From an uncultured Bacilli bacterium (GTDB taxonomy: Bacteria; Bacillota_I; Bacilli_A; RF39; UBA660): a DNA stretch of 64,000 nucleotides. The stretch covers positions 4,829 through 68,828 of the forward strand of contig CANRDB010000001.1 of NCBI GenBank assembly GCA_947629315.1, written 5' to 3'. The translations under genes and the position numbers were made by a program. Shown one piece after another: positions 26,160 through 29,834 of this stretch; within the stretch, counting starts at the first letter, position 1; the number at the start of each line of letters is the position of its first letter. The notes beneath the pieces are model-generated. The model searched no databases, was not told the origin of the DNA, and saw nothing but the letters and a program-made list of their open reading frames with translations.

Positions 26160-26256
26160 AAGTGGCACTTTTGCCAAAAATTAGAACGAAAATAAGCACT
26201 TTACATTTCATTTGAAATATTATATAATACAAGTAACTAGAAAGAAGGGATTATAA

Positions 26257-27651
26257 ATGAAAAAAGTAGTAGGAACAGTAATGAAAGGGATGCTTGTTAC
26301 TTCAGGAGTTGTCACTGCTGTTGGTTGTACATTAGCTATCAGTAATCATTTGTTGAAATCAGATGATCTTGTTCTATCCAATCACAATGGTAGCGAAGTA
26401 AAACAAGCAAATGTTTTAGCGGTCGCTCAAAATCAAGTAAAGGAAGCGGAAGTTCAAGAGGCAAAAGCCAACCAAGAATTGACAAAAGCAACAAATGAAA
26501 AAGCAGAGGCAGAAAAAGAAGTTCAAAAAGCGAAAGAAACTGTGAAAGAGGTTCAAAAGGAAAAAAGCAAAGCCGAAGCACAATTAAAAGAAGCCAAAAC
26601 AGAAGAAGAAAGAAAACAGGTAGAAGATCAAATTAAAGTTTTAGAAGAAAAAGTGAAAGAAGCTGAAAATAATCAAAAAGCAGCAGAATCAAAAGTACAA
26701 GAAGCAGAGACTAAGGTTCAAGAGGCTGAAGTGAAAGTTCAAGAGGCTGAAGCCAAGGTTCAAGAAGCTGAGGCTAAAGTTCAAGAAGTACAAGAGACAG
26801 AAATGAAGAAACAAGAAGTAGAAAAACAAGTTCAAGAAGTTCTTCCAGCAAATCCTTCAAAAGAAGAAACTCAAACTACTGTCAAAGAAGAAAACACTAC
26901 CAAACCAGTTGAAAATAATCAACAAGTAACGACTCAAGAAACAAAGCAACCAGAGACAAAACAAACTGAAACGAAACAACCAGAGACAAAGCAAGTTGAA
27001 ACAAAACAGACTGAAACGAAAAAAGAAGAATCTTCAACAAACAATAATTCTTCTAATAATAGTTCTTCTAGATTAACGCAAGAGGCTTTAGAGGCTGCAG
27101 CGAGAGCAGAACAAAAATGGAATGAGGAATATCAAAAATTCCTTGCTGATCAAAAAGCAGAAGCAGATGCTAAAAAGCAAGCAAGAGATGAGGAAGCTAA
27201 AAAAGCAGAAGAGGCTGCTGAAAAAGAATTGGAAGAAAGAAGACAAAGAGAATCAACAGACAGTTTAAAGAACTTTGGTTCAGCGACTACTGATACCGTA
27301 TTTGGAGATAGAACTTTTACATTTGCTCAAAAGAATGTAGATTTACCATTTAATCCAGATATCAAAGAAAATCCAAAGAAAGTGACTTGTACAGGAGACC
27401 ATTGCGGAAAGAATGAACAAGGTTACATTTGGTTTGCTAGATTTAATAACAATTTAAATCTTGATATCTTTAAAGAACCTGGTAGTGATCGTTATGTAAG
27501 TAGTGTTCTTATTGGAAAACGTGGCGATGTAGAATATTGGACGCAATATGCACCAAGTGTTGTAAACGGTCATCAATTTGTAGAGTGGAAAGTAACAGAT
27601 ACTACTGAATATGGTATGAAAATTAAAGTTTATACTGCCATTTATAAGTAA
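26257..27651 (+). CDS. Secreted repeat-rich coiled-coil protein with a globular C-terminal domain
   Basis: Signal peptide, KVQEAE tandem repeats (18-bp units at 26690-26790), TKQ(P/T)E repeats (15-bp units at 26940-27010), and a Cys-containing C-terminal domain. RBS gaaagaaggga. Confidence 0.6.
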   Translation: MKKVVGTVMKGMLVTSGVVTAVGCTLAISNHLLKSDDLVLSNHNGSEVKQANVLAVAQNQVKEAEVQEAKANQELTKATNEKAEAEKEVQKAKETVKEVQKEKSKAEAQLKEAKTEEERKQVEDQIKVLEEKVKEAENNQKAAESKVQEAETKVQEAEVKVQEAEAKVQEAEAKVQEVQETEMKKQEVEKQVQEVLPANPSKEETQTTVKEENTTKPVENNQQVTTQETKQPETKQTETKQPETKQVETKQTETKKEESSTNNNSSNNSSSRLTQEALEAAARAEQKWNEEYQKFLADQKAEADAKKQARDEEAKKAEEAAEKELEERRQRESTDSLKNFGSATTDTVFGDRTFTFAQKNVDLPFNPDIKENPKKVTCTGDHCGKNEQGYIWFARFNNNLNLDIFKEPGSDRYVSSVLIGKRGDVEYWTQYAPSVVNGHQFVEWKVTDTTEYGMKIKVYTAIYK

Positions 27652-27830
27652 TGAAAGAGCGAAACAATTCGCTCTTTTCTTTTGACCTATGATTAAAACT
27701 ATCCTTTTAGAATAATATACATTGAGGAGGTTTGATGATGAAAGTAATCAGTCATTTTAAAGATAATGGTGAAAATTTAACAAAAGTTATAGAAGAATTG
27801 TTAAAAAATATCATTCAAAAATAAAGGCAA

Positions 27831-29420
27831 ATGTATGATAACTTTTTCAGATTTATAAAAGAAATCCATTATATTATTTATACTAGACTTTCTAAGGAAG
27901 AACAAGGAAAAAGTCGAGAAGATCAAAGTAGAAGTATAAAAAACCAAATAACAGTATGTCAAAATTATATGGAGGAAGAAAAAAGGACTTATCCAAATTG
28001 TATCTTTAAAGAAGTTGCTATTTTAAAAGATGATGGGGTTTCAGGAACAACTTTTAATCGAGAAGATTTTCATAAACTAGTAACGTTAATTGAACAAAAA
28101 CAAGCCAATATGGTCATCACAAAAGATTTATCAAGGCTTGGAAGAGATCATATTCAAACAGACGATTACCTTGAGAAATGGTTCCCAGAACATAATGTCC
28201 GATATGTCTCTGTAATGGAAAATATTGACACTTATGTGGATTCTATAAGCAATGAAATTGCCCCTATTATCAATTGGAGTAATGAAAATTTTGCGAGACA
28301 AACTTCTAAAAAAATTAAAAAAACTTTTAAAGAATATCGGAAAGATGGGAAATGGACAGGTGGAGAAATCCCTTTAGGTTATCGAAAGGATCCGCATGAT
28401 AAATATCATTTTATGATTGATGAACAAGGAAAAGAAATCGTAGAAAGAATATTTCATTTGGCCTTAAATCATAATAGCCTCGATAAAATAGTAAAAATAC
28501 TAACAGAAGAAAATGTCCCCCTACCCTCTGCTATTAAGAAAAACAAAAGAAAATTAAATATTAACATGTGGTCTACAAAAACCGTCAAAAGTATTTTACA
28601 AAATGAAATGTATTTAGGTCATATGGTTCAAGGAAAAACAACACGTTTAAACCATAAATCAAAAAAAATCATTTATTTAGAAAAAGCCAACTGGGATATC
28701 GTTAAAAACACACATGAAGCAATCATTGATCAGGAAACTTTTCAAAATGTTCAACTATTATTAAAAGCCAATAAAAATAAAACCATTCACTCTTATGATT
28801 ATCTATTAAAAGGTTTAATAAAGTGTAAAGAATGTAAGCATAGTATTAGCATTCAAAGCTATCCCAAACGAAAAGCCTGTTATACCGTTTGCAATTATTA
28901 CCGAAAATATGGAAGTAAAAAAGAGGTATGCACTGCTCATAGATTTAATTATTTAGAATTAGAAAAATTAGTTTTAACACAAATAAAAGAAGATTGTTTT
29001 AAATATCTTGATAAAGATAAATTAATGGAAATACTTACTAATTATCAAGAACATCTTCCAATCATTTATGATATAAAAAGGAATATAGAGAAAAGTAAAC
29101 AAGAAATAAGAAAATTAGATAATCAAATAAAGGAAATCTATAATGATAAATTAGAAGGAATTATAACGAAAGAACAATACCAAAATATCACCAAAAGTAA
29201 ATATGAAACATTAGAATATGAAAAAAAGAAAATATCCCGTTATCAGAATCAATTAAAAGAAACAGAAAAAAATAATCAAAAACAAAATGAAAAAAAAATA
29301 ATTCAAGAAGTTTTATCCCTAAATAATAAATTACTCATTTTAAATTTAATTGATGTCATTTATTTAGGTCAAAATGGACATATCCATATTTATTATAAAA
29401 TTCAAAAGCCATATCAATAG
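27831..29420 (+). CDS. Large serine recombinase, third paralog
   Basis: [12 protein letters not shown] catalytic motif, a recombinase domain, a zinc ribbon (CKECKHS…[14 protein letters not shown]) and a coiled-coil tail. Confidence 0.85.
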
Positions 29421-29834
29421 TGCCACTTTGAATGGTTTGCAACTGGTTCTACTGGAGATATCGGTCCTACGGGTCCTACCGGTGATATTGGTCCTACTGG
29501 CCCTACCGGTGATGTTGGTCCTACGGGTCCTACCGGTGATGTTGGTCCTACTGGTCCTACTGGTGATATTGGTCCTACGGGTCCTACCGGTGATGTTGGT
29601 CCTACTGGCCCTACCGGTGATGTTGGTCCTACTGGCCCTACCGGTGATGTTGGTCCTACGGGTCCTACCGGTGATGTTGGTCCTACTGGTGCAACTCCCG
29701 CTCTTACTATTGGAACTGTAACCACCGTTGGTCCAGATGAACCAGCTGCAGCTACTATTACTGGAACTGCCCCTAACTTTGTTCTTAATTTAAGTATTCC
29801 ACAAGGTCCTACCGGTCCTGCTGCTGGAGCATAA
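29421..29834 (+). pseudogene. 3' collagen-like gene segment with ([10 protein letters not shown])x8 plus a BclA-like C-terminal domain; in frame with and contiguous to the recombinase stop codon; no start codon
   Basis: Immediately after TAG the frame reads [22 protein letters not shown]…[48 protein letters not shown]. No in-frame ATG/GTG/TTG precedes the repeats. Confidence 0.6.
29463..29690 (+). repeat. 27-bp tandem coding repeats (ggtcctacgggtcctaccggtgatgtt, about 8 units)
   Basis: Direct inspection; each unit encodes GPTGPTGD(V/I). Confidence 0.8.

Follow-up and report, generated by a model that had tools for sequence, protein, structure and literature searches.

Three miniature serine recombinase elements appear to divide a single collagen-like gene in an uncultured Bacilli bacterium

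A stretch of 64,000 nucleotides from an uncultured Bacilli bacterium (contig CANRDB010000001.1 of assembly GCA_947629315.1, positions 4,829 to 68,828; hereafter the window) holds at 18448-29834, on the forward strand, what reads as a single collagen-like gene divided into four pieces by three elements, E1, E2 and E3, each of which carries the gene of a large serine recombinase (LSR). E3 is very probably an integrated miniature mobile element run by its own recombinase, LSR3. The core of this interpretation, that it is an LSR element with attachment (att) sites from which it could be excised precisely, is put forward with high confidence. The anatomy of E3, its crossover at an AC dinucleotide, the in-frame restoration of the gene on its removal and the conservation of this design across a family that targets collagen codons are all established in silico. 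With good support, LSR3 is also probably active and probably made the insertion. The window is chromosomal, encoding RNase Y, RecA, MreC, FtsK, enolase, SerS, PolA, Ddl and MurF.

Organisation of the interrupted gene

In what follows the coordinates of gene pieces count the crossover AC in the left-hand piece, and element sizes take in one copy of it. The first piece, P1 (18448-18701, forward strand, 254 bp), encodes the N-terminal domain, a short collagen run and the first 'TIGT..ILNFxIPxG' module, and its last bases are the crossover AC of E1. E1 occupies 18702-23147 (4,446 bp), with arms at 18702-18726 and 23121-23145 and AC at 18700-18701 and 23146-23147. Between E1 and E2 lies P2 (23148-23264, forward strand), 117 bp of in-frame sequence that supply 39 collagen codons. 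E2 (23265-26101; 2,837 bp) is in reverse orientation, with arms at 23265-23287 and 26077-26099 and AC at 23263-64 and 26100-01, and is followed by P3 (26102-26146, forward strand), whose 45 bp form 15 collagen codons and end in the crossover AC of E3. E3 covers 26147-29443 (3,297 bp) and has its crossover AC at 26145-26146 and 29442-29443. The final piece, P4 (29444-29834, forward strand, 391 bp), encodes 28 collagen triplets and the second module and closes with the native C-terminus GPTGPAAGA; its stop codon, TAA, is at 29832-29834.

Every border between a piece and an element falls at an AC within the codon context GCA-AC-TGG or CCT-AC-TGG, and at each of the six junctions the register of arm, AC and collagen codons is exact. 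When E1-E3 are removed in silico and P1-P4 are joined at the ACs, one open reading frame (ORF) of 268 amino acids (aa) results, in which 47 uninterrupted Gly-X-Y triplets span all three junctions; the four pieces are free of frameshifts and stops. All three elements would have to leave to yield the 268-aa protein. E1, E2 and E3 lie side by side with the same layout, and a nested insertion was rejected. The GC content of the elements (30-33%) is only slightly lower than that of the flanks (33-36%) and is uninformative, and Rfam and tRNA scans of the region found no relevant RNA gene.

Attachment sites and crossover of E3

The left arm of E3, TGCACTCACTTAAAAGTGGCACT (26147-26169, forward strand), is the putative P' half-site and is conserved across the eight loci that were scored for both element ends. 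The right arm, AGTGCCACTTTGAATGGTTTGCA (29419-29441, forward strand), is the putative P half-site; it overlaps the stop codon of LSR3 and is followed by AC at 29442-29443. A repeat search, independent of the att analysis, reported a terminal inverted repeat for E3 with 27-nt arms (26147-26173 and 29415-29441) that are 78% complementary, and likewise reported one for E2. Between the 81-nt end regions of E3 the inverted match AGTGCCACTTT is exact over 11 bp, a length reached by 0.3% of random pairs of 81-nt windows, whereas the longest exact direct match between the same regions is 8 bp.

Serine-integrase attP sites have a standard anatomy, summarised for the gin element, of inverted recognition arms flanking a non-palindromic central dinucleotide where strands are exchanged (PMC5595907). 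The reconstructed attP of E3, AGTGCCACTTTGAATGGTTTGCA-AC-TGCACTCACTTAAAAGTGGCACT, is about 48 bp long and consists of two imperfect inverted 23-bp arms about a non-palindromic AC. Arm symmetry about the AC is 18/23 in E3, 20/25 in E1 and 16/23 in E2; random 23-mers from the window have a mean symmetry of 6.3 (standard deviation 2.2), and the probability of 16 or more is 5e-5. All of the features by which an LSR attP is recognised, namely imperfect inverted arms, a length of about 50 bp and a central non-palindromic dinucleotide, are present in E1-E3. The LSR stop codon lies inside the arm in E2 and E3 and immediately beside it in E1.

The integrated sites of E3 are attL (26125-26169) and attR (29419-29463). 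In all three elements attL and attR share only the crossover dinucleotide, in the same polarity (AC at 26145/29442 in E3, 23263/26100 in E2 and 18700/23146 in E1), and no longer duplication is seen. Only the two AC bases are duplicated, so a target-site duplication is absent; it is established that serine recombinases exchange strands over 2 bp and make no longer duplication (e.g. PMC5595907). Excision of E3 is predicted to produce an attB junction in which GGGTCCTAC meets TGGTTCTACTGG (in a longer form, CGTTGGCCCTACGGGTCCTAC meets TGGTTCTACTGGAGATATCGG), and the circle would carry an attP junction of CACTTTGAATGGTTTGCAAC with TGCACTCACTTAAAAGTGGC.

These results revise part of an original prediction for this region, which had described a unit at 26161-29430 flanked by a 12-13-bp direct repeat. 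It had located the motif correctly: AGTGGCACTTTTG is at 26161-26173, and AGTGCCACTTTG, at 29419-29430, runs over the TAG stop of LSR3 (529 aa). AGTG[GC]CACTTT occurs at only these two places in the window. Its view of the unit as an inserted element that carries a coiled-coil exported protein and a recombinase, and that interrupts a collagen-like gene, is upheld. The two motif copies, the first in the left arm and the second in the right, are the outer part of inverted arms that lie inside the element, and the borders move outwards to 26147-29443. Because the core of the motif, AAGTG-G/C-CACTT, is itself a palindrome, the inverted copy resembles a direct copy with only the middle base changed. 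A 24-aa collagen stub had also been aligned, with a 9-bp gap, to the start of the long collagen segment (26094-26145 against 29436-29478). The alignment exists, and no special similarity goes with it: its score of 23.6 is not above those of other collagen stretches (27.4 at 23185, 26.2 at 23212 and 25.4 at 29544), a generic likeness among collagen repeats that refutes this part of the prediction by its own criterion. The GCAACTGGT common to the two aligned stretches arises where element arms (..GCA) meet the AC crossover, after which host TGGT follows. The host part of the stub is not a duplicate of that start; it is P3, a genuine internal piece of the gene, and the stub owes its ATG and first residues to the inner E2 arm. 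What had been counted as a second insertion is the third of three that stand side by side.

The 12-mer CTATGGAGCAAC occurs twice in the window (15411-15422 and 26090-26101), against 0 expected from shuffles. At 26090-26101 it is made up of the inner E2 arm and the AC crossover; at 15411-15422 it lies in a SecA-like ORF (codons YGAT), 45 bp past the frameshift of that gene, and this copy may be a coincidence or a pseudo-att site.

Gene content of the elements

LSR3 (27831-29420, forward strand, with its TAG stop at 29418-29420) is a protein of 529 aa with Resolvase, Recombinase and Zn_ribbon_recom domains and a YTRLS motif (Ser21). In LSR1 (21123-23120, forward strand) the recombinase domain carries about 200 inserted aa, and LSR2 (23282-24796, reverse strand) lies in E2. 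PF00239, PF07508 and PF13408 match all three recombinases, whose ORFs are full length; YTRLS is the form that the YxRLS motif takes in LSR3. The best NCBIfam match of LSR3 is XisF, far under the cutoff of that model (E 3e-26; 92 bits against 375). In phage and plasmid collections LSR3 has no relative above 34% identity, and none close to it turned up in IMG/VR; no vehicle for the elements was found.

The cargo gene of E3 (26257-27651, forward strand) encodes a protein of 464 aa with an N-terminal hydrophobic signal or anchor, about 250 residues of long coiled coil and ETKQ repeats, and a C-terminal all-beta domain of about 90 aa. It is predicted from these features to be secreted or anchored. 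No match to it was found in Pfam, PHROG or PADLOC; its C-terminal beta domain recurs as tandem repeats in proteins of 958 aa and 1,089 aa. Upstream lies a sigma-70-like promoter match (26200-26228, forward strand; TTTACA-17-TATAAT, 11/12), which is a consensus match only, such matches being as frequent in the region as in shuffled sequence. A hairpin with a T-run on the 3' side of the gene (27654-27677) resembles an intrinsic terminator.

Between cargo gene and recombinase E3 has a 29-aa ORF, MMKVISHFKDNGENLTKVIEELLKNIIQK (27735-27824, forward strand), which is preceded by a ribosome-binding site of its own; 6 nt separate its end from the start of LSR3. Of 14 related loci examined, 13 gave a called ORF of this type. 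Locus L019 gives no complete call and L020 has a peptide of another type, and the motif is visible in the upstream DNA of both. Synonymous changes exceed non-synonymous ones among close pairs (e.g. 8 against 2), which suggests that the ORF is conserved under purifying selection. E2 has an ORF of 49 aa in the equivalent position (24768-24917, reverse strand), overlapping the LSR2 start, and these two small ORFs are the only candidates for an accessory or directionality factor. In most elements of the E3 family a conserved AGAATAAAAT lies upstream of the 29-aa ORF, at 5-9 nt from its ribosome-binding site.

Each of the other elements has a cargo of a different kind. E1 encodes an O-acetyltransferase of 744 aa (18743-20977, reverse strand) with Pfam and PHROG matches, which matches the phage 'moron' O-antigen acetylase family, and E2 encodes a zinc-ribbon membrane protein of 342 aa (24984-26012, reverse strand) with a Pfam match. 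Among the genes of E1-E3, Pfam and PHROG revealed no transfer functions, and no mobilisation gene or antibiotic-resistance cargo was seen in the elements.

Related elements and their target

LSR3 has thousands of distant homologues, and the close ones (54-78% identical) all come from metagenome-assembled genomes (MAGs) of uncultured gut 'Bacilli' or 'Mollicutes' from rabbit, roe deer and human. Fifteen MAG loci hold LSRs in this range of identity. In 14 of the 15 the LSR stop is followed by an arm of the (A)GTGCCACTTT type and then by collagen codons, and more distant LSRs (40% identity or less) do not adjoin collagen genes. Both element ends were scored computationally in eight loci, the window included, and in all eight the two ends have the same dinucleotide, at a distance of exactly 23 bp in from the end of the arm. 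This dinucleotide reads AC when the element is in the orientation of the gene and GT when it is inverted. The scored elements measure 3,084-3,533 bp, and deleting them leaves an open collagen frame in 8/8. The attP of L008 is a 22/23 palindrome, and the E3-like element of L016, read by eye, has the same AC register at both ends.

Closer relatives encode the same three products as E3, namely a coiled-coil protein that is exported (about 455 aa), a small peptide (about 29 aa) and an LSR. The cargo gene of related elements is 30-47% identical to that of E3; in L014, L015 and L018 only the C-terminal 90 aa or so of the cargo are similar, and they are encoded on the opposite strand.

The attB consensus of the family, GG(N)(C/G)C(W)-AC-(W)GG(W)CC, corresponds to the codons Gly-Pro/Ala-Thr-Gly-Pro/Ser. 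Because GGNCC is nearly self-complementary, this codon string forms a natural inverted repeat around the Thr codon, which makes a collagen repeat a good site for a dimeric recombinase. A collagen-like gene contains dozens of such strings, so one gene can take several insertions. Tandem insertion is in fact common. In L016 an LSR1-like and an E3-like element occupy one gene of the BclA_C type, each with its own arms and AC. In L015 an E1-like pair (LSR 52% and acyltransferase 50% identical) is found near an E3-like element and a homologous N-terminal gene piece, probably a tandem double insertion. In L003, a locus that shares its contig with L008, the collagen gene resumes past the E3-like element and runs at about 7820-9100 into a second end of attL type (GGACCTAC meeting TGCTTAGGGTTTAAAGTGACAC). 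Beyond that end lies a different element, encoding a small resolvase of 202 aa instead of an LSR.

The target gene and its probable identity

With the N-terminal 86 residues of P1 as query, 244 homologues were found, of which the best 120 (P0148-P0267) were classified. Among these 120, 25 look complete (106-149 aa) and have the architecture of the rebuilt protein: an N-terminal Cys-rich segment, GPTGPTGPQGP, a 'TIGTxTTGxPG..ILNFxIPxG' module, collagen triplets, a second module and a GPTGPxx end, with the same C-terminus as P4. At least 34 of the 120 end right after a G-x-T triplet and continue into recurrent non-collagen tails, including ARCNKSSIYIFKW (eight times), ERLFKSSNKIII, ARFNNSSN, ERLFKSSNK, PRLF.. 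and ..KKWH... The ..KKWH.. tail is the translation of an E3-type arm, AAAAGTGGCAC, and the remaining tails imply, by their sequence, further element families with the same junction at the Thr codon. Presence or absence of an element varies among close relatives, since the interrupted P0173 and the intact P0154 are 86% identical. Interruption is thus common and evidently tolerated.

The rebuilt protein is GPT-rich, matches the Pfam Collagen model (E 6.6e-21) and by inspection has no signal peptide. No BclA_C match was found in it, and it has two short 'TIGTxTTGxPG..ILNxxIPxG' modules instead; the targets in L001 and L016 do end in a BclA_C domain. Directly downstream is a gene for a 361-aa glycosyltransferase (GT2 plus TPR; 29840-30925, forward strand), and the pairing of collagen gene and glycosyltransferase recurs in MAG loci of five other species (six loci, two from one species). 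In Clostridioides difficile, SgtA is a 358-aa GT-A and TPR enzyme encoded beside bclA3, and it O-glycosylates Thr in the collagen repeats of BclA3 (PMC7157674). The window protein resembles BclA3 in its GPT-rich Gly-X-Y repeats, in having no signal peptide and in being encoded beside a glycosyltransferase of about 360 aa that equals SgtA in size and architecture. It differs from the BclA family in being without BclA_C, and its spore location is predicted from sequence context.

Several features of that context would be in keeping with sporulation. A GerM-type 'Germane' protein is encoded in the window at 13449-14405, and genes like SigF/G (1e-94) and YlbJ (6e-43), both under curated cutoffs, lie beside the related locus L003. 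In three of five orthologues the -10 consensus of sigmaK, CATAnnnTA, immediately precedes the ribosome-binding site; CGTAnnnTA takes its place in the window and in L015. On these indirect signs together, the target is most likely a BclA-like, glycosylated spore-surface fibre that would be made by the mother cell.

Comparison with known systems

Elements that intervene in genes and are removed during sporulation include skin in sigK, SPbeta in spsM, vfbin in spoVFB and gin in gerE (PMC5595907; PMC4191935; PMC5025042). As in these, an LSR-bearing element here splits a coding sequence, its precise excision (here in silico) rebuilds the ORF, and the att sites are imperfect inverted repeats about a short shared core or central dinucleotide. 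The case of gin indicates that such elements need not be prophages, as is true here, and the target of SPbeta, spsM, is likewise a spore-surface glycan gene. E1-E3 are far smaller, at 2.8-4.4 kb against 28.6 kb for gin, and skin and SPbeta are much larger prophages or prophage-like elements. They also differ from the known sporulation elements in that three lie in one gene, and in that their target is a codon string repeated many times per gene, used at varying positions and in either orientation, whereas the known elements use one fixed site. Excision of skin, SPbeta and gin is sporulation-specific; for E1-E3 such timing, a directionality factor and a spore-forming host are proposals.

A second comparison is with the interruption elements of heterocyst-forming cyanobacteria, such as the fdxN element with XisF and the nifD and hupL elements; in Calothrix NIES-4101 the nif genes are split into 13 parts (PMC4874684, PMC11249958). 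There, too, several recombinase-bearing elements interrupt one gene or operon, and all are removed in a terminally differentiated cell, as is proposed for E1-E3. The heterocyst elements belong to another phylum and cell type, are mostly larger, and occupy unique sites in metabolic genes rather than a repeat-encoded palindrome.

The clostridial transposons Tn4451 and Tn4453 are elements of a few kb that the LSR TnpX moves by way of a circular intermediate; its dinucleotide is GA and its targets are loosely defined. E1-E3 are similar in being LSR-run elements of a few kb without phage genes, and in LSR3 the catalytic domain alone matches TnpX, the closest among solved structures. In contrast to the TnpX transposons, the crossover of the E3 family is AC (GT if inverted) and the target is strictly collagen codons (14/15 loci). 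E3 therefore falls outside the TnpX-transposon class on dinucleotide and target choice, and it has every feature of the LSR integrative element class that can be examined in silico.

Proposed mechanism and alternative explanations

In the proposed mechanism, the two ends of a free circular E3 would join into the attP of about 48 bp. LSR3 would then have recombined this attP with an attB in the collagen-like gene, ..GGTCCT-AC-TGGTTC.., which encodes Gly-Pro-Thr-Gly-Ser/Pro and would be cut at the AC of the Thr codon, giving the attL and attR now seen at 26125-26169 and 29419-29463. Recombination of attL with attR would delete E3 as a circle and restore the ORF base-perfectly (GPTGPT/GSTGDI, with the stroke at the junction), and the conserved 29-aa peptide may aid or direct this excision. 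If it took place in the sporulating mother cell, the BclA-like spore-surface glycoprotein would be made while the spore genome kept the elements. Such timing, argued by analogy with skin, SPbeta, vfbin and gin, is a real possibility, though we would stop short of calling it probable. As the mother cell is terminal, the germ line would retain the elements and the host would bear no cost, which would explain why interrupted alleles are frequent yet undamaged. More tentatively, E1-E3 may belong to a guild of miniature LSR elements specialised, among uncultured gut Bacilli, on the codon palindrome GGN-CCN-ACN-GGN-CCN of collagen-like spore-surface genes. Several could stack in one gene because every Gly-Pro-Thr-Gly-Pro repeat is a potential attB, and the result would be a multi-lock gene, opened by excision in the mother cell, with the elements kept in the spore. 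Were this guild to exist, Firmicutes would have their own version of the nif genes that are interrupted many times over in heterocyst cyanobacteria, with the smallest such elements known.

Several observations weigh against E3 as an excisable element, or against its developmental use. The TGCA common to both ends of E3 permits an alternative crossover 2-3 bp away that is also in frame; a crossover centred on it adds Ala-Thr, breaks the Gly register and disagrees with the family, and was rejected, the family comparison being the only basis on which AC is preferred. The attB of E3 in the window is poorly symmetric (6/20). The intact attP pattern (AGTGCCACTTT-N12-AC-N12-AAAGTGGCACT) has 0 matches in IMG/VR, and scans for it in IMG/VR and JGI metagenomes revealed no excision product. 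Its sole JGI metagenome match (L028, 2594-2641) was rejected as most likely an unrelated operator: on a high-GC actinobacterial contig, this 48-bp palindrome has a gene of the TetR family on one side and an operon for an ABC transporter on the other. No empty-site allele of the same strain was found, and the contigs matching the glycosyltransferase are short and end within the LSR or the collagen repeats. The 29-aa peptide has no match in PDB, family or other databases, the 49-aa ORF of E2 likewise resembles no known factor, and E3 has no recognisable directionality factor. As for development, no sporulation-type promoter can be assigned to the LSR operon, AGAATAAAAT fitting no sigma factor, and the nearest solved relative of the LSR3 catalytic domain is the transposase TnpX (2mhc, E 1.4e-15). 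Insertion positions differ between species, and the LSRs of different species are 66-78% identical, compared with 54-64% for the adjacent host glycosyltransferase. Since the LSRs are more alike than this neighbouring host protein, recent mobility is indicated rather than an anciently fixed switch.

The last four of these points also speak for the same elements without any developmental programme, the main rival explanation, whose claim is serious but less than even and on a par with that of developmental timing. Here E1-E3 would be selfish, target-specific integrative or transposon-like elements hopping among GPTGP-coding sites and strains. The gene would simply be off, or would toggle sporadically, so that a surface fibre, an antigen or a receptor for phages varied in phase, and cargo such as the exported coiled-coil protein and the O-acetyltransferase would pay the host for carriage. 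The occurrence of both element orientations, the difference in presence or absence between relatives as close as P0173 and P0154, the phage 'moron' affinity of the E1 cargo and the vegetative-type promoter match before the E3 cargo gene are all in keeping with it. It sits less well with four clean pieces that rejoin in frame, as in seven other loci, which would be unexpected for long-dead genes, and with the absence of transfer functions noted above. Moreover, three insertions in one gene and at least 28% of homologues interrupted argue that interruption is cheap, as excision in a terminal cell would provide. The developmental and mobile-parasite views are compatible; SPbeta, for one, is an active phage that also serves as a developmental switch.

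The remaining alternatives concern the integrity or the nature of the unit itself. That the elements are dead, immobile relics in a pseudogene is improbable. An arm symmetry of 18/23 in E3, as against 22/23 in L008, and the scans that yielded no excision product would suit decay, but the three LSR ORFs are full length with complete domain sets, the small ORF and cargo gene are intact, and every junction retains its matching dinucleotide and reading frame. The transposon-like unit of the original prediction, with a direct repeat or target-site duplication and a duplicated collagen start, draws on motif copies that are alike on the same strand save for one base and one indel; it is now very hard to sustain. 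Those copies are internal to the element and palindromic, their perfect inverted match is longer than the direct one, exchange at a 2-bp overlap makes no longer duplication (PMC5595907), the stub is no closer to 29436-29478 than to other collagen stretches, and the register of arms and dinucleotides in 8/8 scored loci refutes it. Terminal arms that are inverted repeats might instead suggest a switch in which the recombinase flips the 3.3-kb segment, and this can be set aside almost entirely. The central dinucleotide sets polarity, and because both ACs of each element, E1, E2 and E3 alike, are on the same strand, the productive reaction of attL with attR is deletion and not inversion; flipping would not restore the reading frame in any case. 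Collagen repeats often break assemblies, and many related contigs end in them, so a mis-join of contigs at these repeats deserves consideration. It is very unlikely in view of the exact register at six junctions and the same architecture in 14 other MAGs. In addition, L026, an independent contig from another sample, has 100% protein identity over the C-terminal part of LSR3 and the glycosyltransferase, with a collagen-type stretch between them. The preferred reading thus remains that of an integrated element run by LSR3.

Novelty and significance

In the full-text literature searched, from which subscription journals fall outside, no report links serine recombinases to collagen-like or bclA genes, and no LSR insertion in the bclA genes of C. 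difficile is described. What is new is the repeat-encoded, self-symmetric attB in collagen-like genes, the element size (2.8-4.4 kb), the presence of as many as three stacked elements within one small gene and the breadth of the phenomenon in an uncultured gut lineage. If confirmed, an attB of this kind would be a new class of LSR target and would provide a mechanistic reason for several insertions per gene. Should the developmental reading be true, programmed gene rearrangement in spore-formers would take in collagen-like proteins of the spore surface as well as a gut lineage that is uncultured, through elements roughly a tenth of the size of gin. There is also a problem for annotation, in that at least a quarter of the public homologues of this family are truncated 'hypothetical proteins' with junk tails from such insertions. 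For genome engineering, at least eight natural sets of LSR, attP and attB with defined crossovers and short sites offer raw material of the sort from which integrases now in use were drawn.

Neighbouring genes

Directly upstream of the collagen-like gene is a divergent SecA-like gene (14652-18366), for which all SecA and SecA2 model scores are far under their cutoffs. A frameshift of one base, where six A's follow one another (15360-15365), splits it into ORFs of 238 aa and 988 aa, and one A fewer would join the frames; sequencing error, pseudogene and slippage switch are the candidate explanations. Downstream of the glycosyltransferase, a cluster of large genes extends over 30961-40512. Two of its members (30961-31899 and 36709-38907) encode membrane-anchored proteins with Pro/Val/Ala-rich N-termini, and with a class B sortase encoded at 39580-40512 the cluster may be a surface-protein island.

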